From the sequence record NC_048172.1: DNA of 43,264 bases; one strand, written 5' to 3'. The stretch is from Escherichia phage Minorna. Numbering within the stretch: the first letter of the stretch is position 1; each line of letters begins with the position of its first letter. Made by a program: the position numbers and the translations under genes. Shown one piece after another: positions 1 through 33,131 of the stretch. Under the pieces are notes generated by a model. That model had not been told where the DNA came from. It was given only the letters and a program-made list of their open reading frames with translations, and did no database searches.

Positions 1-159
1 CGTTGAGGGTGAGGGAGGGCCTCGCGTGAGTATAACAAATTTCGAGTTCAGGTATACACCTGCGCAGGGGAGAAGCCCCTGGGATGTTCCAGGAGCTTCT
101 CTTGTACCTACTTGCAGCCACTAGAGAGTATCCGTGCACTCTAGGTGTCAGTAATATAA

Positions 160-1680
160 CTACCGCTGCGCTGATACCGTCCAGCTAAAGTATTGGTCCC
201 CCGATACATTATTACGAACACGTATAATAATATTCTGACCGGATACCTCAAACCAGAACGGGGCGTTGATATCTGTAGTAGGAGTTACCTGAACGTAGCG
301 ACCTTGTAAGGCGCGCGATATACCGGTAGGTACAGTAACCGAGTTGGTCCCTGAAGCTATCTTAGCTGCCCCAGTATTATAAGTAACATACTGCGGGCAG
401 TTCTCGATGGTGACAGCTGCATCGCTAGCATTACTTATTGCACCGTTTACGTTACCTCGGGCATCTACGTTAACGAACTTAACACCACTACCAATACCGT
501 CAGATATAAAGATCCCGTAACCTTGATTGTTAAACTCGAATACAGGAGTTGCACCAGCCTTAACGTTTGTGAAGTTCACATTCTGCACCCCGGCCCCTAA
601 CTCTATTCCGTGCTTCTGTCCGCGGGTTGCCATACTGTTAGCATTACAACTGATGTTACTGAAGTTAATGCCTCCTACATTATAACCTGTGAGCAGTATT
701 CCTGAGCCTTTATTGTTAACACAGGTCAGTCCGTTAAAGTTCAGGTTCTCAAGCCCACCATTCTCAGCATTAAGATGTACTCCAGGATGTAATGCAGTTG
801 TCCCACAAGAACTTCCCCAGCAACCGTTGAAGTTCAGGTCTGAGACACTGGCTCCCCCAGTAGGGGCAAACATTAACCCGCACTCCTTACAGGTATCGCC
901 TAAGATAGCAGTGTAGAAACTGCCTCTACATTTAGTAGCACCAGACGGTAGCCAGGCGTAACCATACTTCATTCCCAAACAGTCGATGTTAGACGCATAG
1001 ACGCCAGAGGCATTGACCTCCTTAACCCCACATCCTTTACCACCCCCTGACAGTACTAGGTTCTGCAGGAACACATCCTGAACTACAGCCGAGGAGGTAT
1101 CGCCTATCACAATAACATCTTCGCTAGTAGTTGCACCGTTAATGGTACAGTTGTTTACGCGGTAGATAAACTGCTGGGGACCGCCGTGCATCTTAAGGAA
1201 GTTATAGAAGGGACCATCTACACGAACATTCTCCAAGCATAAGTTGTATCCGTTAGTCCACGTAATGAAGTCGCCGCTTGTATGTGTCCCATCCACAATA
1301 ATTTGTAGGTCACGGATATGAACATTATTAATATTGGTAGATGCTGTACCGATGGCTGCAAAAGGCACGTTAATTGCAGAGTATAAAAGTACAGTGCTAC
1401 CCTGTCCTGCCCCCACCAAATGCACGTTATTATAGAATGTAAGAGAGCCCTTTAAAGTCCATGTACCAGAGGGTACAGTTACAGCCCCTCCTCCTAGGCT
1501 GTGAGCGTGATTAATCGCGGCTTGGAAGGCAGCACGCGAGTCAGTATTACCTGGAATAGCTCCGAAGTCTGCAACACTAATGTTATCCATTAGTTTAGAC
1601 TCCATGGTACGTTCAACTGCACCTGTTGCGGATGCTTTCCAGTTAACTAACCATGTAGCCACTTTGGTAAGATTTAGCAT
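160..1680 (-). CDS. tailspike / putative polysaccharide depolymerase (pectate-lyase-like beta-helix)
   Basis: 506-aa ORF, last gene in transcription order. N-terminal region (DISVADFGAIPGNTD..AFQAAINHA..GGGAVTVPSGTWTL) resembles the start of pectate-lyase-3 / right-handed beta-helix domains of phage tailspikes; remainder is Gly/Asn/Ser/Thr-rich. Only ~30 aa precede the enzymatic domain. Confidence 0.7.
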   Translation of the reverse strand: MLNLTKVATWLVNWKASATGAVERTMESKLMDNISVADFGAIPGNTDSRAAFQAAINHAHSLGGGAVTVPSGTWTLKGSLTFYNNVHLVGAGQGSTVLLYSAINVPFAAIGTASTNINNVHIRDLQIIVDGTHTSGDFITWTNGYNLCLENVRVDGPFYNFLKMHGGPQQFIYRVNNCTINGATTSEDVIVIGDTSSAVVQDVFLQNLVLSGGGKGCGVKEVNASGVYASNIDCLGMKYGYAWLPSGATKCRGSFYTAILGDTCKECGLMFAPTGGASVSDLNFNGCWGSSCGTTALHPGVHLNAENGGLENLNFNGLTCVNNKGSGILLTGYNVGGINFSNISCNANSMATRGQKHGIELGAGVQNVNFTNVKAGATPVFEFNNQGYGIFISDGIGSGVKFVNVDARGNVNGAISNASDAAVTIENCPQYVTYNTGAAKIASGTNSVTVPTGISRALQGRYVQVTPTTDINAPFWFEVSGQNIIIRVRNNVSGDQYFSWTVSAQR

Positions 1681-1689
1681 TCTGTTCCC

Positions 1690-2289
1690 TTATCTAGGTA
1701 TAGCAGCAACTGCTGCTTGCGTTGATTTGAATTCATTCCCTATAGCCTTAGATTCCCACATACGGCGCTCCCATAGGCCCCAGCATACCTTATTACGCTG
1801 CCCGTTAATATACTGAGAGCAGTCAAAGGTCCAGCGGTTGCCACCCTTGTACACCCAACCGGTGCCTGGGGATTTCTGCTGGTACTTACTAATGTAACGC
1901 CAGTTCAGCACAGCCTTTCCAGCCGCTGCGTAATCTAGGTTTTTGAGGTGCCGTTTCACGGCGCTGCCATTGAAGCCGGCTACGCCTACGTTGTAGATGA
2001 AGTCTACAGACCCTATCAGAGCCACGTCAGAGAGCTGCATAGGAAGCCCGTCAAGAGCCCTAGCATGTCCCCCTGCTGATTCTATCAGTTGCTTCTGACA
2101 GTCGCTCAGAGTGGCTCTCTGGCCCATTTTGACACCTTTTGTCTCCCCGTAGCAGATCGTAGGGATACCGGCACTGTCTTTGTAGGCCGTAAGGCTCAAA
2201 CCTTCATTGTGCTGGACTACCTCCGTAATAGCCCCGCCAAGCATAGTGGCCCCGGCGAGTGCGGCTATAACCCTAGTCCTTAAACTCAT
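1690..2289 (-). CDS. SAR endolysin (T4-lysozyme-like glycoside hydrolase, GH24-type)
   Basis: Catalytic E-x8-D-x5-T pattern (EGLSLTAYKDSAGIPTICYGET); N-terminal Gly/Ala-rich weakly hydrophobic segment (RTRVIAALAGATMLGGAI) typical of a signal-anchor-release domain. Start set at ATG 2289 (AAGGGGG about 9 nt upstream); the track ORF extends to 2313, where the SD would sit too close. Confidence 0.75.
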   Translation of the reverse strand: MSLRTRVIAALAGATMLGGAITEVVQHNEGLSLTAYKDSAGIPTICYGETKGVKMGQRATLSDCQKQLIESAGGHARALDGLPMQLSDVALIGSVDFIYNVGVAGFNGSAVKRHLKNLDYAAAGKAVLNWRYISKYQQKSPGTGWVYKGGNRWTFDCSQYINGQRNKVCWGLWERRMWESKAIGNEFKSTQAAVAAIPR

Positions 2290-2524
2290 ATTTAATAGCC
2301 CCCTTACGTGCATGCTCCTCTAGGAGCTTGTATGTGCGCCATTTATAGTACGCATTCCACGCCAGGGTTAGCACTGCACACACCGTCGCAGTGATGAAGC
2401 TGATAACACTCCAGTCCCAACTCATTAGCTCTGCCAACCAACCTCCTGAGACTGTAGCACCAGTAACAGCTGCTCCTGCCCGGGTAGCGAGGTCTGCCCC
2501 AACTACATCTCCCACTTTAATCAT
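2273..2524 (-). CDS. putative holin (pinholin-like, Gly/Ala-rich first segment plus one strong TMD)
   Basis: 83 aa; Gly/Ala-rich segment (RAGAAVTGATVSGGWLAEL) followed by hydrophobic helix (VISFITATVCAVLTLAW) and charged C-terminus; sits between spanin and SAR endolysin. Confidence 0.5.
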   Translation of the reverse strand: MIKVGDVVGADLATRAGAAVTGATVSGGWLAELMSWDWSVISFITATVCAVLTLAWNAYYKWRTYKLLEEHARKGAIKYEFKD

Positions 2525-2921
2525 CCTGCTGACCCTTCTTCCTAAATAGCTTACGAATCACCAGAATGGCCACTAGGAAGACCAAAGGGATGCTGGCCCC
2601 TGCTAATCCGGCGAGAATAAGACTGTAACTATCGTTGTTAACCACCTGTAGGCGCTCTGCCTGGATTGTGCCTGTACTAATAGTCTGCACTTGCTTCTTG
2701 CTAGAAGTATCCAGTGTACCTACGTTAGAATCCTGTACATCGGTTTTGTTGGTGGTGCTGGAGTCCACCTTATTATTCAGCCCGAGCATCTGTTTAGTAT
2801 TCTCAGCGCCAACCTGAGCAGATACTTCCGGCTTAGAACCAACTAAGCCGGTCAGTGCAGAGGTCGCTGAGCAACCAGTCAGAGTAACCGCGAGCAGTAA
2901 CCCAGCGACCAGTTTGCGCAT
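2517..2921 (-). CDS. unimolecular spanin (u-spanin, T1 gp11-like topology)
   Basis: 134 aa; N-terminal lipoprotein signal with lipobox (LAVTLTGC), Ser/Thr-rich periplasmic region, and C-terminal TMD (ILAGLAGASIPLVFLVAILVI) followed by RKLFRKKG; within the lysis cassette. Confidence 0.6.
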   Translation of the reverse strand: MRKLVAGLLLAVTLTGCSATSALTGLVGSKPEVSAQVGAENTKQMLGLNNKVDSSTTNKTDVQDSNVGTLDTSSKKQVQTISTGTIQAERLQVVNNDSYSLILAGLAGASIPLVFLVAILVIRKLFRKKGQQDD

Positions 2922-3103
2922 TAGCTAGCCGCCTTCACCGCTGCAATAGCAGCTTCCAGTGCGGCAACCTTAGTGTCGAACGCTGCACCAGTCTGGGCTA
3001 CGTTCTGAGGCTGCGTAAGGATTGCATACAGGTCCTTACCCAGAATGTTCAGTTGACGCAGCAGCTCCTGCTGCTGTGCTTGTGTTGCCTTAGCAATTGC
3101 CAT
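2921..3103 (-). CDS. hypothetical protein (60 aa, Ala/Gln-rich, helical)
   Basis: ORF in the gene-dense minus-strand array; stop overlaps the spanin start; no TMD. Confidence 0.4.
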   Translation of the reverse strand: MAIAKATQAQQQELLRQLNILGKDLYAILTQPQNVAQTGAAFDTKVAALEAAIAAVKAAS

Positions 3104-3116
3104 AGTAATTCTCCTA

Positions 3117-3494
3117 TTATGCTGCAGCAGCGTTAGTCGCTGCTACGAAGGCCGACTGTAGGGCCTTGAATGAGTTGTCGAAGTCCGTACCAGAACCCTC
3201 ACCTAGCGGCATACCTGTACCGGTGAGCGCTACGTAGCCGGTCTTGCTAAGCTGGAACAGCATGGAGAACAGTCGCGCCTGCAGGGTGCCATCATCCTTA
3301 AAGGATTCCCCGACAGCTGTAGCCGAGTAGCCTTGGGACTCCATGTAGGCAAAGAACGTGTTGAATTTATCCAGCGCACCCGTACCCACAAAGCCGACAT
3401 TGTAGTCAGGGGCCACCTCTTTCTCAAGGTTCTGGCTCTTGCCTACAATGGCGTACTGTACATCCGCAGATTTAGCCGCGATGATTGATGCCAT
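3117..3494 (-). CDS. hypothetical protein (125 aa)
   Basis: ORF immediately downstream of the large terminase gene; start overlaps the terminase stop; no recognisable motif. Confidence 0.5.
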   Translation of the reverse strand: MASIIAAKSADVQYAIVGKSQNLEKEVAPDYNVGFVGTGALDKFNTFFAYMESQGYSATAVGESFKDDGTLQARLFSMLFQLSKTGYVALTGTGMPLGEGSGTDFDNSFKALQSAFVAATNAAAA

Positions 3495-5350
3495 TATCGT
3501 CTTCCTCTATGTTGTTTGCCTCTACCCCGACCTTGCAGCCGTGCAGCGACTCCCCGCAACTGTTTCTGGACCATACCCTGTGCCCAGTCCAACGGGTTAT
3601 TGATGAATGCTAGTGCCTGCTTCTCAGACTCTCGTGCAGCTACCACTTTCTCATCTTCTACCAGATGCCCGTTCAGTACTGCTACCATCATAGCGATGGC
3701 GTCTGCTCGGTCATCCTTAGCCAAGCTACCCCGGTCATACGTAATACCTGCGAGCTGTGCGAACGCAGAGTACAACCAGCGACGATCTCGGGGGTATAGC
3801 ATACAAGTCCCAATATCATCGTGAATAGCACGCTCATGCACCACTAGGCGGTGTCGTCGAGTTACTGGACTGATTGTGTCTATGATACGACGTTCTTTCT
3901 GCGTGGTGTTGTTAATGTCACGCACACCAATACCAGCAAGGTGACGCTCTCGTAAGCGGTTCAGAATAAGCATAGACACGGTACCGTGCCCCATGTTACT
4001 CTCTACCACCATGTCAGAGATGTCTAACTCTACGCACAGGTCAATGAGCTTGTCGATATTCTCGGTGCTTACACCTCCTTGGAAGCCCCCAACTGAGAAC
4101 AGATGAATGTATGAGTTAGCAGCCCCGCCCGCAGCATAGGAGACTTCATCCCCACCACAACCAGCTGGGTCCACCACCAGCACCTTGTGCTGATACGGCA
4201 AGTGCATATCTCCGTAGAATGCCGGGAAGTACATCTGCTGACCCATAATCCCCTCATGCTCGTGCTGGTATAAGTACCGGCGGTCCGCAATGTAGGAGAA
4301 GGTCTCTGGGGAGGAATCCTGGCTACCAGAGTAAACCAGCATATCCGAAAGCTTGATACGTGTACGCATCTGGTCGGACAGGGTTGTGTCGAGCATGTAC
4401 TGCAACTGGAAGCCTTCTGGGCCGAAGTCCAACTCCTTCTCAATCAGCGCATCCTCATCGTAGCGACCCTTATCGGTGCTCTCCCCTAACGTCCCATCGA
4501 CGCCGAAGCCGGTGCGTTTATAGCCGCGCTCAATAAGCTCCCGGATATAAGGAGCAAGTGTACTTCCATATCGCTCTTCCATTTCAACAGACGGAATGCG
4601 CCCAGGCCACACGCGGACCTCGAAGCCACGTCCCGGCAGTGTTTTATAGATACTGTCCTTGGTCTGTGGTGTACCCAGGTACAGCGTATCCCCGTGCGTA
4701 CAGATGGCCGCGAAGTCTTTAGAAATCGTCAGCAGCTGCTCGCGCTGGGTTTGCGTTAAGCCGTTCTTGGTGGTCTCGATATCGTCCGGAATCAGTAGGT
4801 CCGCACGCTTCCCCTGTAGGGATGCAGTGATACCTACACAGGCTACGCTGGCGGACTTATCTAGAGGTTTCAGGTCACAGTGTACGTCGTAACCTTCAAA
4901 GGAGGTTCGGTCCCCACGTGTAGGGTCAGCCTTCAAGTAGCACAGCAGCGGCCAGGTTTCCAGCATACGAATAATTAAGTTTGCTACGTCGGAAGCCTGC
5001 TTCTCAGCACCCGACACAATCAGGATACGGCAGGATTGGTCCTGGATGAGCCTCCAGACAGCGTATAGCGCAGCTAGTGTAGACTTAGCCTCACCACGCT
5101 GTGCAGCCACCATGCGCTTCCTAGGGCCCTTCTGCATATACTCTGCAATGTCGGCTTGCATGTCCGTGAGCGTAAAGCCTAGGAAGCGCATACCTATATA
5201 TGCGAACTCCCTGAAATTACTGAGGGTAGCCGCCATCATCATGGCGATATCCTCGCGCTCCTCTTTGGGAATACTGCGCGGGTTCGCATTATAACCAGTA
5301 AGTTTCTGGTTGAGCATGCGCAGTCTTCGCGCAGTCTTCACCGATACCAT
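3494..5350 (-). CDS. terminase large subunit (T7 gp19-like DNA maturase B)
   Basis: 618-aa ORF at the position and size of T7-like large terminases, with ATPase-like N-terminal half and nuclease-like C-terminal half; directly follows the putative small subunit. Confidence 0.85.
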   Translation of the reverse strand: MVSVKTARRLRMLNQKLTGYNANPRSIPKEEREDIAMMMAATLSNFREFAYIGMRFLGFTLTDMQADIAEYMQKGPRKRMVAAQRGEAKSTLAALYAVWRLIQDQSCRILIVSGAEKQASDVANLIIRMLETWPLLCYLKADPTRGDRTSFEGYDVHCDLKPLDKSASVACVGITASLQGKRADLLIPDDIETTKNGLTQTQREQLLTISKDFAAICTHGDTLYLGTPQTKDSIYKTLPGRGFEVRVWPGRIPSVEMEERYGSTLAPYIRELIERGYKRTGFGVDGTLGESTDKGRYDEDALIEKELDFGPEGFQLQYMLDTTLSDQMRTRIKLSDMLVYSGSQDSSPETFSYIADRRYLYQHEHEGIMGQQMYFPAFYGDMHLPYQHKVLVVDPAGCGGDEVSYAAGGAANSYIHLFSVGGFQGGVSTENIDKLIDLCVELDISDMVVESNMGHGTVSMLILNRLRERHLAGIGVRDINNTTQKERRIIDTISPVTRRHRLVVHERAIHDDIGTCMLYPRDRRWLYSAFAQLAGITYDRGSLAKDDRADAIAMMVAVLNGHLVEDEKVVAARESEKQALAFINNPLDWAQGMVQKQLRGVAARLQGRGRGKQHRGRR

Positions 5351-5658
5351 TAGACAATTCCTTCTAGTAAGTCCTCAGAGTCTGAACCACTAATCTTGTT
5401 CAAAATCTCTTTCTTACGCGCCTCTCTGCGCGCCGCTAGTTCGTCATCGAATTCATCACGTAGCTCCTGCATCTCCTCGGAATCTGCATCGGCGGTGATG
5501 TCATTGTCTTTCAGGAACTTGGCAATAACAGATTTATCAGCAGCCGGTAAAGGGACCGCATCTTCCCCGGCCTGACGCAGCTCCTCAATAAGTGCCTCCG
5601 TGAACATGCGGTGCAGTTCGCTGAGTCGGCTACGCGTTCCTGCCTTGGATACAGCCAT
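5350..5658 (-). CDS. putative terminase small subunit (DNA maturase A)
   Basis: 102-aa acidic helical protein immediately upstream of, and translationally coupled to, the large terminase; assignment by position and size only. Confidence 0.5.
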   Translation of the reverse strand: MAVSKAGTRSRLSELHRMFTEALIEELRQAGEDAVPLPAADKSVIAKFLKDNDITADADSEEMQELRDEFDDELAARREARKKEILNKISGSDSEDLLEGIV

Positions 5659-5667
5659 AAACCCTCC

Positions 5668-6009
5668 TTACCAGCCCACGGTGTAAATCAGAGCACCCAC
5701 TGGGAGTTCACTGGCGAAAGTTACAGTAGCCCCGCTGAGCGTGTAGCTATAGCCGGGAATCTGAATAACCCCATTGATGTAGATATCTACATCCGTGTAG
5801 GTGTTAGTTAAGGTAAAGGTAGTCCCTGCCTTGGATACAGTCAGGTACGCCGATGTACGGACACCCGGCTTAAGCGGCTTACCCCCAGCAGTGCTGCCAT
5901 CTCCAATGGTCAAAGTGTTGCTAGTGGTCAGAAGAACCAACTCCCCGGCCTTCAACACCTTGGTTGCCACTACGGCATCAGCACCTCGGCGTAGTTGTAA
6001 AGTTGGCAT
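5668..6009 (-). CDS. small tail-fiber-like protein (paralog 2)
   Basis: 113 aa; N-terminus MPTLQLRRG..AGELVL..GDGSTAGGKP parallels the adjacent 149-aa ORF and resembles N-terminal motifs of phage fiber proteins. Confidence 0.5.
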   Translation of the reverse strand: MPTLQLRRGADAVVATKVLKAGELVLLTTSNTLTIGDGSTAGGKPLKPGVRTSAYLTVSKAGTTFTLTNTYTDVDIYINGVIQIPGYSYTLSGATVTFASELPVGALIYTVGW

Positions 6010-6021
6010 TTCTACCCCCTA

Positions 6022-6471
6022 TTAGGTAATGACACCCAGGTCAATATTTTGCAACGTAGTATTGATGGTAACAGCAGCTGAGCCGTCAAAGTTAGCTGTA
6101 CCACTCACGTCACCAGACAATGCAATAGCTCTGGCAGTAGTCAGCTTAGCAGCACTACCCGTGGTGTTGACACTAGCAGTACCGGTTAGCAAGTTTGCTG
6201 GTACATCGGTAACTGCAAACGTAACGTCAGCACTACCGTCGAAACTTTGAGGAGCCGCCGTAATACCGGAGAAGCCAATAGTTCGAGCAGTCTTCAGTTT
6301 ATCGGCGGTGGATGCCGGGGTACCGGCACCTACCGGGAAGCCACCTGCGGTTGTACCATCACCCACGTAGATAATTTTAGCGGTGCTGTCATACACCAGC
6401 TCCCCGGCAAGCGGGATATACTTAGAGACCTGGGCGGTAGTCCCACGTTTAAGTTGTAAAGTTGGCATCAA
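6022..6471 (-). CDS. small tail-fiber-like protein (paralog 1)
   Basis: 149 aa; N-terminus MMPTLQLKRG..AGELVY..GDGTTAGGFP; Thr/Ala/Gly-rich remainder; follows the fiber adaptor gene. Confidence 0.5.
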   Translation of the reverse strand: MMPTLQLKRGTTAQVSKYIPLAGELVYDSTAKIIYVGDGTTAGGFPVGAGTPASTADKLKTARTIGFSGITAAPQSFDGSADVTFAVTDVPANLLTGTASVNTTGSAAKLTTARAIALSGDVSGTANFDGSAAVTINTTLQNIDLGVIT

Positions 6472-7220
6472 AGTTCTCCTAAGTCCATGTTATATACATA
6501 CTCTTTTAAGTCGTCGAACTCAGACCGTGACACTGCATCCAAGTCCGTCGAATCCTGTCCGATACGCACAGACACTACTGTACCAGCCGGAATTGTCTCA
6601 GCCAGGATAATCTGGTTGTTCACAATACTGAACCCGTAACCGATATCCTGGTGCACCCCATCAAGATACAAGGTGGCACGAGTAAATCGGTACGGTGGGC
6701 TGATGATATTAGTCGGGACCGTGGTAACAGTACACCACGGGATAGTCACATCATCTGTGTTTATACCCTGCTCAAGCGCGGTTACACGGGCATCTACTAC
6801 ATCCAGCTGTCCCTTGTTTACAGCGTCTCCGGGATTAACACCATCCCCAAGATTGGTAATCCGGTAGCCGTTCATGCTTATATCCCCGTAGAATCCGGGG
6901 ATGGCCCTACCCTCCACCAGCTCTTGAGCTAAGTGTAAGAACTGTGTGTTTTGAGAGTCTACGTTCACCTCGATGAATGGGGAACCGCTAGCAAACTCAA
7001 TGTACAGATACTCGCGCTCAGTCTTGCGAATGAGCAGTACCGTCGTATCCGCTGTCAAGGCTGTGTTCAGCCTAATATTTGTAGAGCTGGTCCAGGTGTA
7101 CCCAGTGGTTTCAACGCCGTCGAGATATACATGAATATAGGACTTGTCCAAATATTCAATATCACACTGGATATCCTGGGTACCAGCTGGCTTGATTTGC
7201 TCTTGCCAGCTGTATGCCAT
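6468..7220 (-). CDS. tail fiber protein / adaptor (T7 gp17 N-terminal-domain-like, no large distal domain)
   Basis: 250-aa ORF directly after the internal virion protein genes, the canonical gp17 position; too short to carry a full receptor-binding domain. Confidence 0.6.
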   Translation of the reverse strand: MAYSWQEQIKPAGTQDIQCDIEYLDKSYIHVYLDGVETTGYTWTSSTNIRLNTALTADTTVLLIRKTEREYLYIEFASGSPFIEVNVDSQNTQFLHLAQELVEGRAIPGFYGDISMNGYRITNLGDGVNPGDAVNKGQLDVVDARVTALEQGINTDDVTIPWCTVTTVPTNIISPPYRFTRATLYLDGVHQDIGYGFSIVNNQIILAETIPAGTVVSVRIGQDSTDLDAVSRSEFDDLKEYVYNMDLGEL

Positions 7221-7221
7221 A

Positions 7222-10200
7222 TTAATCGTCTCCGAAGTTATTGATGATAGCTCGCGTAGGCGCGAATTCCTGGATTAACGGGACCTGCTTAGTGAAGGTC
7301 TGGATATCCATATCCCCAGTAGCCAGGGCTTGCACCGCACCCAACAGCCCGGTGACGTAGCCCATAGACGCCAGAGAATGACGCGGAGAGTCCCCAGTGA
7401 AGATATCCTGCAGAAGCGAGATACCACCGATGGCACTCATACCCATAACCGATTCAGCGATAAGCTTTTGAGTGTCGACCTCTTTGCCGTCCATACCGTG
7501 CTTCGCCATAGTTGCTAGAAGCATCAATGGGAACTGGTATGCCATGATGTGTGCAACCCCAATCCACCCGGCATCATTCAACTCGCGGCGCAGAATCTTG
7601 TTGGTGGCAGCCAGGGCGAAGCTCTGATAGCCGACAATTACTTTGCCGATAGGGTTGAACTGGGCGAAGTGCGAGGTCTCACCGGTACGTACTTGCTGCA
7701 CCAAATAGTCCATCATACGCGTCCCTACCACCTCAACTTGCATTTGCAGGTCCGGCTGGAACATAGCACCAGGATTAGCTTTGTTAGCAGCAATAGCCCG
7801 GTCAGCGATTTCACGAGTAAGACCGAAACGTTCCAGACGCTTAAACGCCTCAGCGTCGCCCTTGAACATCTGCTGGAGCTCGTCCGCTACAATACCTGAG
7901 TTAAGGTTAACCTGCAGTCGATGTACCATACTCATACCGTTGACGTGACGTGCAGCCTGTCCAACGTTCTGGGTGACGTTAAACCAGGAAGCCTGACGGG
8001 TCAGGTCCAAGTTATCGTCTGCGTAGGTATTCAACCAGCGGAAGCGCATCTCCTTCTGGATACTACCACGTAGGATTGCATCCAGACGACTAGCCATATC
8101 CGGAGTGCGAATAGCTACGGAACCTTCTTTAAACCAAGGCTGCTCACGCATACTGCGAAGTACTCGGGACATACCAAACTCTTTCAGCGCTAGGGCGGTG
8201 TCAGTAAGCTGGTACAACCCAGAGTTCTTAAGCATGGTAGCGTTGGCCATGTTACCGGCTGCACGGAGCAGGTCCGGCATCTGCCCGGCGTCGGCTGGTG
8301 CCCCACCTAAGATAAAGTCGATGGTGTCATTAACGGTCTTCTCCCACTTACCTGAATCGGCCAGGGCGTGTTTGGACTCATTAATCATTGTCTCCAGCAC
8401 CTTGAGGTCAGATATCCCAGCATAAGCCATACCCACACGACCTGACATTCGGTTAGTATAACCATGCATAACCTTGGCTACGTCAGTATCCATCAGATCC
8501 TGCATACGCATAACCTGACCGTCTACGATGTACTCTTTGTCCATGTTGAAGCGGGTACGTTGACGGAGGTTCTTAGCAGGCGAGGTGGCGCCAGATTCTC
8601 GGACATTACCTGCCAAGAAACTCTGGATTGCATCCTCGTCTACACCAGCATTACGCATGGCCATAACTACTTCATCATTACCCATACCATTGATGAGTTG
8701 CTTCCACATAGGACCAGAGGCCGAGGAGCGTCCGTTGTAGATACCGTCAACCATCTCCTTAGCAACACGTTGAACGACCTCAGGCTCCATAGATGGATAC
8801 ACATCACGCAGTGCCTGACGGAACAGATCCCGATAATTATCCAAGGAGCGACCATTTGCAATACCTTGGCGCATCTTATCGTAGCTGTACTGGCGAGGGA
8901 AGTAATAGTCCGATTTAATCAGAGTACCGTCATCCACCAGCCCGGCAGCAGTCATGTGATCGTGCCACTTACTGGCCCAGCCGGAGTTGCGGTATGCCTC
9001 TACTAGCGGAACCAAGTCAGAGTCCGGCAGAGGTACCGGGCGTCCATTAACCTCCGCGCTGTATGCAGAGTCCAGGTAACGGCCCAAGCGGGCTTCTAAG
9101 TCAGCGCGAGCTGCTCGGAAGTTGCTACGGTGGAAGAAGCGGTCTATGAAACCTACACCTTTGGCCTTAAGGGCACCAAGTATAGCGTCCTCAACTACAC
9201 TGGCACTAGCGTCCATCTCCAACGTAAGGTTACGCTTGAAGTCCACCACAGACGGTTTACGACCGCCTACAGCAGTAGCGTCAGATACTAGTAAGCGTGC
9301 CAGGTCCTCGCTACCCTCTGCGATGTTATCATACAGGGAGAACATAGTGGCGAACTTGCGCTTAGCAGTGTCCATCATAGCTTGGGCCTTCAAGGCCTCA
9401 TGCTTAACCGATGTATCCGCCAAGTCCTGGAAGGCCTCACTCCGGAAGCTCTGAGCTTGGTCTGCGTAGTCCTTTGCGGTCCACTTGACAGCATCCTCGT
9501 ACGCGTCCAGAACATCCTCCAGAGCGGACCCCTTGGTGCGAATCCCCAGGGCATTCATGATGTACTCACCAATCTGGCGGAGCATACTCCTACCAGTAGG
9601 AGATTGAGTTCTAGAGAGATACTCCACCCACTCAGGGCTATCACCTAGTCCTGCTAACATCTCGTGCACATCGCTTGCGTAGTACTTAAGCTTATCACTG
9701 AGGGTTGAATCAGCTGCTATTGCAGCGCGCACCTCTTCCAGCTTACTAGCAATTTCAGGATTCTGCTTGATGGCTCTGGTGGTGGCAGCGTGAATCAGCT
9801 CGTGCACTGCTACTCGGCTAGTGTCCGCATCCATAGCACGCAGAGCATCCCCGGCAGTAGTCCAGGTACTTCCGTTCGCTTTCTTAGGGGCACGTAAAGA
9901 TATAAAACCCCTATCAGTTGTTGATGCTGGTGAAAATCCGTAGTGACTACGGTTAGAAGAACCGGCCACCAGTTTAAAGTCGATATCCTGTACTGCGTCA
10001 CCCAGGGTGTCCAGGATAGCCTTCTGACCTTTAGATAAGTGTTCAGAGGTCTTGAGGAAACGGACTACGTCCTGCGCTTTCATGTTAACAGCAGCAGTGT
10101 TATTCCGGCGAACTTGGATAGGTTCATCCAGTACCTTAGTGAGTATTGTGTCCCCTTCTCCTACTCCTGTAACATTAGCATCCCTTGCTGTACGAGTTGT

Positions 10201-29958: not shown

Positions 29959-30385
29959 TCCAGCTCCTGTTACTTATTACGTCACTGATTACGTGTACAC
30001 CTACACCATACTTATTGGCGAAGTATTGTCGCACACCTTTCTTGTAAGGGATATAGTTATTTCTAATATCCTGCACAGCATCCCAAGATAGCTTCGCTTT
30101 TGGGTTTCTCTCTCCACGCACATCCGGGTTCCTTCCACGTTCCGCACGGTCTCTCATATTATCTAAATGTGTCCCCAGCACGAGGTGTTCTGGATTAATA
30201 CATCTAGGATTATCACAGGTATGCCTAACAGATAAGCCAGCTATAACATCTAAGCTTAGCCCGTTATGTTCTGCATACACCACCCTGTGTAGCAGTTCTA
30301 AGCGCTTGGTTGGTTTGTACCAAGCCCTACGATAGCCATTCTTATTAAGGCATTTAGTATACCCGTGGTCAATACACATCGACAT
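29951..30385 (-). CDS. HNH homing endonuclease
   Basis: 144 aa with HRVVYAEHNG..VRHTCDNPRCINPEHLVLGTHLDNM, a typical phage HNH nuclease motif; preceded by a 160-nt AT-rich non-coding segment. Confidence 0.8.
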   Translation of the reverse strand: MSMCIDHGYTKCLNKNGYRRAWYKPTKRLELLHRVVYAEHNGLSLDVIAGLSVRHTCDNPRCINPEHLVLGTHLDNMRDRAERGRNPDVRGERNPKAKLSWDAVQDIRNNYIPYKKGVRQYFANKYGVGVHVISDVISNRSWNA

Positions 30386-30546
30386 TTGGTATCCTCTTAT
30401 GTTGTTCCTACTCGTATCACATTAATTCTCGGTAAATCACAGAATCAAGCCAGAGTCAACAAATAATTTTATTTAATTATCTGCTTGACCCCAGCTAATT
30501 CTCGTGTTACCCTAACCCCCTACACCGCCCAAGGGTCCACCTATCA

Positions 30547-30768
30547 TCACTCCGCGATGAGCTTGTACTCTCCAGCGAAGAAGGTGATGCCGTCCCCAGG
30601 CTTCTCTGAATTATTGTCTGGATTCATTAACTCCACCTCCCAGAATTCGGGGTCATAAGATATCACACGATGCTGAGTGCCTGGTGCAAAGTAATCACGA
30701 TGTCTAGGTTCTAAGGGTTCCGGCCCAAGTCCCAGTATCTCCACAATACTACCCGGTTTAATAGTCAT
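30547..30768 (-). CDS. hypothetical protein (73 aa)
   Basis: Small ORF directly after the DNA polymerase gene; start overlaps the polymerase stop. Confidence 0.45.
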   Translation of the reverse strand: MTIKPGSIVEILGLGPEPLEPRHRDYFAPGTQHRVISYDPEFWEVELMNPDNNSEKPGDGITFFAGEYKLIAE

Positions 30769-33131
30769 TCTACTTTCTCCTTACTGTACATGCTTGTACC
30801 CATTTCAGCTTCCGCTGGGAACGGGACTTCGCCAATGATGCCGTAGTTAGGCCAGAGCTGGTGAATACGCTTAGGTGCATCCTCCATACACTGCTTAACT
30901 AACAGGCTCGCTTCTCTGCCTACTTCCGGATTAGCACTATCCAGATACAATGCATCGTGCACGTTCGTAATCAAGCACACCTGATTATTGAACCAATCCC
31001 GTGCCAGCATTGCACGCAGAACCATACCAGCTGCTACCGCCATCAGGAAGAATGCCTCACCCTGACACCAGTAGTTAGCCATCTCAGTTTCTTTGTAGTC
31101 CATCACCTTTTGTTTGCGCTGGCCAGGGACTACTTCCTTCCACTGCTCCTTCTGGCGGAAACTGTACCGTGCACCAGCTGGGCTGGTCCAGGTGCCAATG
31201 CGGTAGATGCGGTAGCTGCCATCATCCGCTTGCTCCCGGTAAATGCGCCCAGCCGCCCCGGTGCGCTCTACCTCCTCCTTTACTACCGCCCGGAATCCGA
31301 TGGTGTCTGGGAACAGCTTCGCCTCGTTATCCAGGAACGACTGCGCATACTCCACTGTACAGCCTGTAGCAAACGCAATCCCTTTAGCCGTAGCCCCGTA
31401 CTGTGCAGCAAAGCTCGGAGGCTTAATGTCCGTACGCTGCTGCTTCCAGTATTTGTAGTCCGGCCCATCTGCGTTGTGGCAGAGGTCGTACATCTCTTCG
31501 TAGGTTTTGCCCTCCTTGAACGCTAGGCGGTAGCAGTGCATATCCGTGCCGTTCTGCAGCAAACCCAACAGCTTCCTGTCTCCGGTGTGAACACAAGACA
31601 TAACCACTTCCAGGGCAGAGTAGTCAACCTCAGTGATACGACCGGATTCACCGAAACGGGAAGTGAACATCTGTTTTACTTTACTAGTTCCATCTCGCGG
31701 GAGATTCTGGAGGTTTGGGTTAGAGCCAGATAGTCTCCCGGTAACAGTAGCACAGGTGTTGAGGCGGTGGTGGATAACACCCGAACCATCAAGGTTCTGA
31801 GGTATAACATATTGGAGCATGCCTGAGGTCTTTTTAATTGACCCATCTTCGTTATACTCCGTTCGTAGATAGTAAGTTCCTGTATCCTTTTCCAGAGCGC
31901 CGAGTTCGTTCACCAATCGACAGAACTCAAATCCATGACGTGCTAGGGCTTCCATTGCATCTGTGCTGGTGCTGTAGATTGGTGTCCCATCCTGCAAGCA
32001 CCGAGCTTGCCTGAACTCCCCACGCTCAGCGTATTTCTCTCGGAGCACCTCTGGGAGTTCTTGGATGTTAACTAGGCCTGGACAGAAGTAGAGGTCGTCC
32101 TCCCACTTGAGTTTCTCCTCTTCAGTGTCCACTCGGAACACTTTTGGTAGGCCCTTGTTCTTCCCTGCTTTGTAGGTTACATAATTGTGTGGTCCAGATA
32201 CGTCGGTGCTATCACAAGGTACGAATGTTCCGTCAGTGCCCTGCACCAGGTACGCATCACACTTAACGTACTGTGGAGGGTCGTATGGTACTTTCTTGCG
32301 ATACTTGATAGGGCCACCGTATACCAGTGCAGACATATGGAAGTCCGAGCCGAAGTTGAAATCCAGTGTCTCCGGCAAGTCCTTCGGGATGTATTGTTGC
32401 AGCTCCTTCTTAATCTCCAGGATACGCTGCTCCTGCTCCTCTTGGTTCTTGCGAGCAATGGGCATATTCACGAACAGACCGAACCATTCGCAGTAGGCCC
32501 AGGCCAGTAAGGCATCCATGCGCTCCCACACATACTGCATCTGATTACGCTGGGCGAACGTAGCGCACTGGCCGTAGAAGCACAGGGCCGTGTTCGGTAT
32601 ATCCCCATTCACTAGGTAGTCATGCAATAGCATAGGATCAATCTGGGAGGTTAATACACCTTGATCCCAGAGAATCTTAACCCCATCTACTTTGTGCGTA
32701 CCGCCGTACTTAGGAGCCGTCTCGTCCAGTGACGGATACATGCTCTGAAAGTCCGAGGCGATGTATTCTCCGTGCATCGTGCAGAACACCCTGCCGCCGC
32801 GCTTGAGGAAGGCCTCAAACTGCTGCCGCTGGTACGTGAGAAACCAAGAAATCTCATAGGCTGCGTTGTGCGCAACAATAAGCCAGCAATCTTCTGGGAT
32901 ATGAAACCACCGGCAGCCTTCTGCTGCACTGTTTCCCGCCAAGAAATCAGCTCTTGAATTGAAGCGCACCGATTGAGTCGCACCAACAGTGGTAGTACCG
33001 TCAGCCTGTGTCGTGTCGATACGCCATGCTGACTCAACAACATAGTTGTCAGGGCAGTATGGGCTTGCTTTAGAGCCATAATATTCATGGTTCTCTGTCT
33101 CCAAGTCGATGTGCATTATGCTGGTTGTCAT
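30765..33131 (-). CDS. DNA polymerase (family A, with 3'-5' exonuclease domain)
   Basis: 788 aa; N-terminal Exo I-like HIDLETE; Pol A fingers motif VTGRLSGSNPNLQNLP; position after the helicase gene. Confidence 0.85.
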   Translation of the reverse strand: MTTSIMHIDLETENHEYYGSKASPYCPDNYVVESAWRIDTTQADGTTTVGATQSVRFNSRADFLAGNSAAEGCRWFHIPEDCWLIVAHNAAYEISWFLTYQRQQFEAFLKRGGRVFCTMHGEYIASDFQSMYPSLDETAPKYGGTHKVDGVKILWDQGVLTSQIDPMLLHDYLVNGDIPNTALCFYGQCATFAQRNQMQYVWERMDALLAWAYCEWFGLFVNMPIARKNQEEQEQRILEIKKELQQYIPKDLPETLDFNFGSDFHMSALVYGGPIKYRKKVPYDPPQYVKCDAYLVQGTDGTFVPCDSTDVSGPHNYVTYKAGKNKGLPKVFRVDTEEEKLKWEDDLYFCPGLVNIQELPEVLREKYAERGEFRQARCLQDGTPIYSTSTDAMEALARHGFEFCRLVNELGALEKDTGTYYLRTEYNEDGSIKKTSGMLQYVIPQNLDGSGVIHHRLNTCATVTGRLSGSNPNLQNLPRDGTSKVKQMFTSRFGESGRITEVDYSALEVVMSCVHTGDRKLLGLLQNGTDMHCYRLAFKEGKTYEEMYDLCHNADGPDYKYWKQQRTDIKPPSFAAQYGATAKGIAFATGCTVEYAQSFLDNEAKLFPDTIGFRAVVKEEVERTGAAGRIYREQADDGSYRIYRIGTWTSPAGARYSFRQKEQWKEVVPGQRKQKVMDYKETEMANYWCQGEAFFLMAVAAGMVLRAMLARDWFNNQVCLITNVHDALYLDSANPEVGREASLLVKQCMEDAPKRIHQLWPNYGIIGEVPFPAEAEMGTSMYSKEKVE

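Follow-up and report, generated by a model that had tools for sequence, protein, structure and literature searches.

Two receptor-binding proteins are found in the KP34viruses of group A (Latka et al. 2019, PMC6872550). The first (RBP1) has about 300 amino acids (aa) and consists of a T7-type anchor and a T4gp10-like fragment without an enzymatic domain, and the second (RBP2) has a beta-helix and a conserved N-terminal heptapeptide. Their genes are separated by 5-8 others, for maturases, hypothetical proteins and endolysin, and the same authors liken the layout to that of phages K1E, K1-5 and SP6. In phage KP32 both the branching domain and the conserved peptide are required for RBP2 incorporation (PMC13352976). 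Is the same architecture present in a phage of E. coli? The 43,264-nucleotide (nt) genome of Escherichia phage Minorna (NC_048172.1), called the window below, was analysed. The gene in question is the tailspike gene at 160..1680 on the minus strand (stop codon included), whose 506-aa product corresponds to RBP2, and its proposed partner is a 250-aa adaptor, a truncated RBP1, encoded at the gp17 position (6468..7220, minus strand). The 506-aa protein is, with high probability, a virion tailspike with a beta-helix, attached to the 250-aa adaptor via a very short N-terminal peptide.

Minorna is a KP34-like podovirus of the genus Drulisvirus. Its genome is shown here reverse-complemented, with every gene on the minus strand, and the spike gene is the last one in the direction of transcription. 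The ATG start lies at 1680, 9 nt past the endolysin stop and with the ribosome-binding site AAGGGA; beyond the gene there remain 159 nt free of open reading frames (ORFs), including the conserved positions 1-117. The product is 100% identical to the one annotated 'pectate lyase superfamily protein' in Escherichia phage Minorna. Compared with the closest phage record in the searched collection, Escherichia phage AV102 (97% over window positions 1-8000), the spike gene has 25 synonymous and 6 nonsynonymous codon differences, thus it is a real gene under purifying selection. A first-pass annotation, made by a model from the letters and a list of ORFs, had taken this ORF as the last gene and as the only large receptor-binding-type protein. 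The ORF, its position and a scan of the ORFs of at least 200 aa (polymerases, helicase, portal, tube, nozzle and alike), where no other large receptor-binding gene was found, agree with that claim. A hidden longer N-terminus was considered and rejected, for the ORF begins at the first possible start codon after an in-frame upstream stop. A scan for promoters and terminators gave counts at or near the level of shuffled sequence, with nothing pointing to separate regulation of the spike gene.

The fold of the spike is given by Pfam, AlphaFold2 and Foldseek together. The pectate-lyase-like family PF12708 matches aa 34-233 (E 1.8e-14), and an AlphaFold2 model computed from an alignment of 14 sequences reached a mean predicted local distance difference test score (pLDDT) of 87.7 and a predicted template modelling score (pTM) of 0.80. 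The model shows beta-helix rungs at about aa 65-425, a C-terminal beta-sandwich at 430-506, and disorder at residues 1-11 (pLDDT <50). From its strand pattern, Foldseek and phmmer, a right-handed parallel beta-helix body of about aa 34-425 (406..1581, minus strand) was delimited, presumed to be the domain that binds and cleaves polysaccharide. The beta-sandwich of about aa 430-506 (163..393, minus strand) follows from the secondary structure of the model and from BLASTP alignments that reach residues 500-506, and it is kept together with the body in all full-length spike homologues. A C-terminal intramolecular chaperone was rejected, as there is no Peptidase_S74 match and homologues align to the last residues. 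When the model was compared with the PDB by Foldseek, the O-antigen tailspikes of Sf6 and HK620 came out on top (E about 1e-12, TM 0.5-0.6), followed by AlgE4/AlgE6 epimerase modules and the tailspikes of Det7, CBA120 (TSP3) and phi297; against Sf6, HK620, Det7 and CBA120 TSP3 the E-values range from 1e-12 to 1e-8. The P22/Sf6/HK620 tailspikes have a right-handed parallel beta-helix and a C-terminal beta-sandwich like the Minorna spike, but the sequence identity is only about 15%, and Minorna has no P22-type head-binding domain.

What would such a body do at the cell surface? Judging from the fold comparison, it most likely cleaves an E. coli surface polysaccharide, either O-antigen or capsule. 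In 14 spike homologues, some with as little as 22% identity, Asp202 never varies and Asp233 and Asp262 hardly do, which makes the three aspartates candidates for the active site. When sequence is the only basis of comparison, solved structures match no more than the first rungs, and the matched structures are AlgE mannuronan C5-epimerases. This raises the alternative that the beta-helix protein binds its sugar without cleaving it, or modifies it without chain cleavage, for example by epimerisation, so that 'depolymerase' would be a misnomer. That the epimerases are the best sequence matches among solved structures speaks for such an activity, as do the lack of assignable catalytic residues and of any characterised spike homologue. 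However, the whole protein fits best to the fold of hydrolytic O-antigen tailspikes, and the conservation of the three aspartates at so low an identity is compatible with an acid-catalysed active site. A non-cleaving spike is thus rated unlikely, though it is the likeliest of the alternatives considered, and cleavage is preferred.

Can the sugar be named? The closest phage homologues of the spike besides AV102 are tail-fibre proteins of 77-kb E. coli phages, with 43% identity and uncharacterised. Among 5,426 complete E. coli genomes none matches the spike DNA, hence there is no prophage counterpart from which an O-type could be inferred. The literature on Minorna (PMC6554615) and AV102 gives no receptor, serotype or halo data, and the PDB, when queried with the KPV811 spike, yielded no solved spike chain of a Drulisvirus.

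The second component of the system is the adaptor. As the first-pass annotation had stated, the gene at the gp17 position is only 250 aa long and is parted from the spike gene by terminase and lysis genes, with nine ORFs in between. The protein consists of a gp17-type anchor (aa 1 to about 141), a short coiled coil, a knob or 'branching' domain (about aa 156-225) and a C-terminal tail ending in MDLGEL. Its only Pfam matches are the T7 tail-fibre N-terminal domain PF03906 (aa 13-141) and a short stalk motif (YadA_stalk). Among solved structures it matches the tail fiber gp9 of 23sh (E 5e-100), Gp44 of 8ES4 (E 2e-82, aa 1-225 of 250) and gp47 of 8VBX, and in a preprint Gp44 of 8ES4 is named the HRP29 tailspike adapter (bioRxiv 10.64898/2026.05.12.724579). 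The knob block is conserved with the Minorna relatives KPV811, SFN6B and IK_ECO1 and with the knobs of 23sh, 8ES4 and 8VBX. At the DNA level the similarity to KPV811, SFN6B and IK_ECO1 stops at about codon 125-147 (window 6780-6853). The family extends further to Vectrevirus tail-fibre proteins and to a Vibrio phage record annotated 'K1E endosialidase adaptor protein'. No receptor-binding domain was found in the adaptor by Pfam or by PDB alignment over aa 1-225, and the protein has no room for one. The adaptor-plus-tailspike architecture proposed in the first pass, with a beta-helix in the 506-aa protein and none of the receptor binding in the 250-aa protein, is therefore supported from both sides, by the Gp44 homology and by an anchorless spike with a tailspike fold.

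How is a spike without an anchor domain held? Its codons 1-19, MLNLTKVATWLVNWKASAT (1624..1680, minus strand), encode a putative docking peptide, which is the sole part not common to homologues with other N-terminal modules. In BLASTP of the spike against these homologues (P0002 and P0004-P0011), every alignment begins at residue 11-20, therefore only about 10-19 residues are specific to this attachment type; this, together with the disorder of residues 1-11, bears out the earlier remark that the protein has almost no N-terminal anchor. The modules on the homologues are Calx-beta and Tail_spike_N in P0002 (864 aa, 82% identity to the Minorna spike), Tail_spike_N in P0004 (739 aa, 82%), a T7 gp17 anchor in P0006 and P0010 (48% and 31%), a long unrelated region in P0007 (43%) and collagen-like repeats in P0011 (33%). 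The Minorna-type N-terminus is also present in P0003 (MIQLTKVASW..., 506 aa, 78% identical), which is encoded on a Drulisvirus contig, and in the terminal spike of Raoultella phage P3a (MAKLTRVTDW...). It is moreover 42% identical over aa 4-88 to gp53 of the K1-5-like phage LL11 (Vectrevirus), the second of two spikes encoded past the LL11 lysis genes. Note that directly before the beta-helix lies the segment TGAVERTMESKLMD (aa 19-31, window 1624-1590, minus strand), which recurs in P0002-P0011 where very different N-terminal modules join the same body; it may be a recombination hotspot, akin to the conserved motif at anchor-domain ends in PMC10408124.

A protein without anchor domain might also be no virion part at all, but a soluble enzyme freed at lysis, whose gene would close the lysis cassette, its translation coupled to that of the endolysin. 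The distance of 9 nt between endolysin stop and start codon and the lack of a visible promoter of its own would fit with this. Against it, a virion tailspike occupies that gene position across the genus, virion tailspikes of Vectrevirus have a conserved counterpart of the N-terminal peptide, and the capsid decoration proteins, which are virion parts too, are likewise encoded past the terminase. A soluble enzyme is considered highly improbable, and the protein is treated as a virion tailspike below.

The closest counterpart of this arrangement is KP34 group A, with the 307-aa tail fibre and the gp57 depolymerase of KP34. Both belong to the same genus and have a truncated anchor-plus-knob RBP1 without enzymatic domain, a beta-helix RBP2 that comes last, beyond terminase, hypothetical and lysis genes, a very short docking peptide, and a cassette that varies among relatives. 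Minorna differs from group A by its peptide MLNLTKV, by an RBP1 of 250 rather than about 300 aa which ends in a DLG motif, by two extra ORFs with an Mtd_N domain, and by its E. coli host. Its gap between RBP1 and RBP2 comprises seven genes of the group A kind and two small fibre-like ORFs, nine altogether.

Leiman et al. 2007 reportedly described for K1E, K1-5 and SP6 a gp37 adaptor with gp46/gp47 tailspikes, which are attached by N-terminal peptides of 7-11 residues. The Minorna adaptor has the gp37 family in common with these phages, at about 35% identity over aa 38-221, and their tailspikes too lie at the genome end past the lysis genes, whereas they have two terminal spikes per adaptor against one in Minorna and belong to another subfamily (Molineuxvirinae). 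A closer adaptor is gp44 of Shigella phage HRP29 (8ES4, 260 aa; Subramanian et al. 2024). HRP29 has a T7-like tail with an enzymatic tailspike on a gp44-type adaptor, an arrangement proposed for Minorna too, as well as homologous capsid decoration proteins (8ELD Gp47/Gp48). According to the literature a gp44/gp52 complex was purified, and the HRP29 spike is Sf6/P22-like; no HRP29 chain in the PDB matched the Minorna spike by sequence.

Two further phages show what may happen at the knob. Gp47 of the KP34-like Pectobacterium phage PhiM1 (8VBX, PMC11440229), whose spike is gp39, has the same anchor and knob and adapts spike-protein trimers. It differs from the Minorna adaptor in its length of 534 aa, with a distal fibre covalently continued past the knob; the equivalent of this fibre in Minorna may be separate small proteins. 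The phiKMV-like phage Ar-KM has in gp44 a 251-aa fibre with beta-barrel, coiled coil and knob, and cryo-electron microscopy showed that an N-terminal helix of the protein encoded next is inserted in this knob (bioRxiv 10.64898/2026.05.18.726046). Ar-KM also has small variable ORFs (gp45-47) past the fibre gene, but its similarity to the Minorna adaptor is limited to the N-terminal barrel (9s0y, E 8e-9), and it binds pili and has no beta-helix spike.

On the basis of these systems the following scenario may be given. Six trimers of the gp17-type adaptor would sit on the tail, held by their N-terminal anchor domain. On the C-terminal knob of each adaptor a tailspike trimer would dock non-covalently via its N-terminal peptide of about 10-19 residues. 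The beta-helix body would then bind, and most likely cleave, the surface polysaccharide, which would let the nozzle reach the outer membrane. The docking is inferred from the HRP29, PhiM1 and KP32 literature, and the trimeric state, the catalysis and the kind of sugar likewise from homologues.

Several points weigh against this scenario. The Minorna peptide MLNLTKV does not fit the MALxxLV heptapeptide of Klebsiella Drulisviruses. Spikes of other phages and contigs start with MALTDLV (KPV811), MALVRNI (IK_ECO1), MALTNLI (SFN6B) and MALVENI (the metagenomic contig L013), and the Minorna peptide is nearer to P0003, Raoultella phage P3a and LL11 gp53 than to the MALxxLV type. A search of PDB sequences with the adaptor profile did not recover T4 gp10, so the label 'T4gp10-like' for the knob was not reproduced. 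The close homologues of the spike are all uncharacterised, and no catalytic residue or substrate was assigned from the comparison. Finally, there is a second knob-like domain, in a 113-aa protein encoded behind the adaptor, which could offer an alternative docking site. In that case the spike would sit at the far end of a chain leading from the adaptor through a 148-aa protein to the 113-aa protein, docked on the C-terminal domain of the latter. The C-terminal half of the 113-aa protein is indeed homologous to the adaptor knob, and the three proteins are conserved as a set. Yet the contig L008 has a spike 78% identical to that of Minorna with the same N-terminal peptide, and there the tail-fibre gene abuts the small terminase without Mtd_N ORFs; Klebsiella Drulisviruses also dock their spikes without Mtd_N ORFs. 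Docking on the 113-aa protein is accordingly judged quite unlikely, and the adaptor knob is kept as the probable site.

The next question is whether the spike gene moves as a unit. A DNA search with window positions 1-1700 gave 218 matching records, among which only AV102 covers the spike ORF, while the other listed records match within 1-117. This terminal sequence (1..117, without strand) is conserved across the genus and forms the left border of the exchanged cassette. On the right-hand side, the similarity breaks in pairwise BLAST at 1678 against IK_ECO1, 1727 against KPV811 and 1735 against SFN6B, which have unrelated spikes of 707, 563 and 598 aa, respectively, at the same locus. In L013, which is more distant (large terminase 76% identical), the adaptor is kept at 62% and the terminal gene encodes an unrelated protein of 517 aa. 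The reverse case is L008, another Drulisvirus contig, where a different RBP1 goes with the 78% identical spike. Two phage contigs, one of 62 kb that encodes a P22-type portal together with SU10-type adaptor proteins and one of about 46 kb, even have spike bodies with 82% identity. Such horizontal transfer among genera of E. coli phages has been documented (PMC10408124). The spike cassette has been exchanged. The first-pass suggestion of a swappable terminal cassette thus holds in the comparison with relatives, with borders at 117 and 1678-1735, an unrelated spike beside a kept adaptor in one contig, and bodies of 78-82% identity in L008 and two unrelated phage types. Flanked by the endolysin gene and the conserved terminus of the genome, the spike gene stands on its own; it is swapped whole by recombination, which makes it a host-range module.

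Two small fibre-like ORFs between the adaptor and the small terminase (5668..6468, minus strand) were overlooked in the first pass. The first encodes a 148-aa protein (6022..6468, minus strand) with an Mtd_N beta-prism (PF18454, E 3e-12) and two fibre-shaft repeats, which ends in IDLGVIT; its ATG overlaps the adaptor stop codon. The C-terminal region resembles the phage L Dec protein (6e3c, E 1e-6), and the protein has 57% identity to its counterpart in L013 and is a 'tail fiber protein' in the AV102 annotation. The second ORF (5668..6009, minus strand) encodes the 113-aa protein, with an Mtd_N beta-prism (PF18454, E 4e-9) and the domain homologous to the adaptor knob. It matches phrog_2710 at positions 193-247, PDB 9k4a (E 3e-8) and the knob regions of 8VBX, 23sh and 8ES4, and is 57% identical in L013-L015; an AlphaFold2 model on a 4-sequence alignment reached a pLDDT of 47 and was unusable. 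In KPV811, SFN6B and IK_ECO1 one tail-fibre gene (318-502 aa) abuts the small terminase, where Minorna has the two extra ORFs. The trio of adaptor, 148-aa and 113-aa proteins is found in the metagenomic relatives L013-L015 with the same sizes (251/149/114 aa) and 57-62% identity.

The junctions between the three proteins follow a pattern. The motif ...DLGxx ends both the adaptor and the 148-aa protein, each time directly before an Mtd_N start, in Minorna as well as in L013, and Pseudomonas phage Ep4 shows a matching junction, ...LDFGSL followed by an Mtd_N fibre. The Mtd_N ORF pair or junction lies at 5668-6468 in the window (minus strand), at 7787-9345 in L013 and at 3995-5748 in L006. In IK_ECO1 a fibre-like extension past the knob is part of one polypeptide, as it is in the long fibre of PhiM1 gp47 (534 aa). 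The 148-aa gene has 4 synonymous and 10 nonsynonymous codon differences to AV102, clustered in the fibre repeats, while synonymous changes dominate in the other genes of comparable or greater length in window positions 1-7220; the pattern fits either diversifying selection or relaxed constraint. A short segmented fibre besides the spike is suspected from these sequences. It is conceivable, though rather doubtful, that Minorna, AV102 and L013-L015 carry beside the spike a second receptor-binding structure made of the three separate polypeptides.

The genes between the 113-aa ORF and the spike (1690..5658) were assigned by Pfam and the AV102 annotation and are, on the minus strand, the small terminase (5350-5658), the large terminase (3494-5350), proteins of 125 aa (3117-3494) and 60 aa (2921-3103), the spanin (2517-2921), the holin (2273-2524) and the endolysin (1690-2313). 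The two 'hypothetical proteins' 3' of the large terminase are capsid decoration proteins: the 125-aa protein matches 8ELD Gp47 (E 1e-40) and 23sf gp6 (E 1e-60), and the 60-aa protein 8ELD Gp48 (E 5e-20) and 23sf gp5 (E 5e-29). The spanin, of 134 aa, has a lipoprotein signal and a hydrophobic C-terminal stretch, compatible with a unimolecular spanin. For the endolysin two transmembrane domains were predicted in the genome paper (PMC6554615). Some of the larger ORFs of the window have Pfam matches to single-subunit RNA polymerase, family A DNA polymerase, DnaB-like helicase, portal, tube and nozzle. At 30001-31000, near the start of the DNA polymerase gene, the G+C content falls to 0.456 from about 0.52, with strongly negative GC skew. 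In the DNA search with positions 1-8000, about 250 mostly Klebsiella Drulisviruses stand behind AV102 at 85-93%. The genome announcement (PMC6554615) gives the same length of 43,264 bp and labels Minorna a myophage, T1-like and with headful packaging; gene content and the NCBI taxonomy, which places it as Drulisvirus minorna in the Slopekvirinae, assign it instead to Drulisvirus, a genus of T7-like podoviruses. Terminal repeats are annotated in some relatives, such as KpV71.

What do these results mean for the phage and its family? The adaptor-plus-spike reading is supported, but it re-derives the published KP34-type model (Latka et al. 2019, PMC6872550), and the Minorna pair is an ordinary instance of a well-described architecture. 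As such it matters little: the genome is published, the annotation of the spike already reads pectate-lyase superfamily, and for KP34-like phages the architecture is textbook. What is more particular is that Minorna is one of few Drulisviruses infecting E. coli and that unrelated phage types have spike bodies about 82% identical to its own. The spike is thus ready for use as a module in host-range engineering as soon as its target sugar is known. With two small fibre-like proteins encoded beside the adaptor, the first-pass statement that the spike is the prime determinant of host specificity may not be complete. The trio of adaptor, 148-aa and 113-aa proteins is the only element here that might teach something new on podovirus fibre assembly. 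If the proposed second structure exists, the docking of a C-terminal DLG tail in the N-terminal beta-prism of the next protein would represent a mode of linking fibre segments that has not been described, and the Minorna virion would be a dual-receptor machine built from non-covalent modules only.

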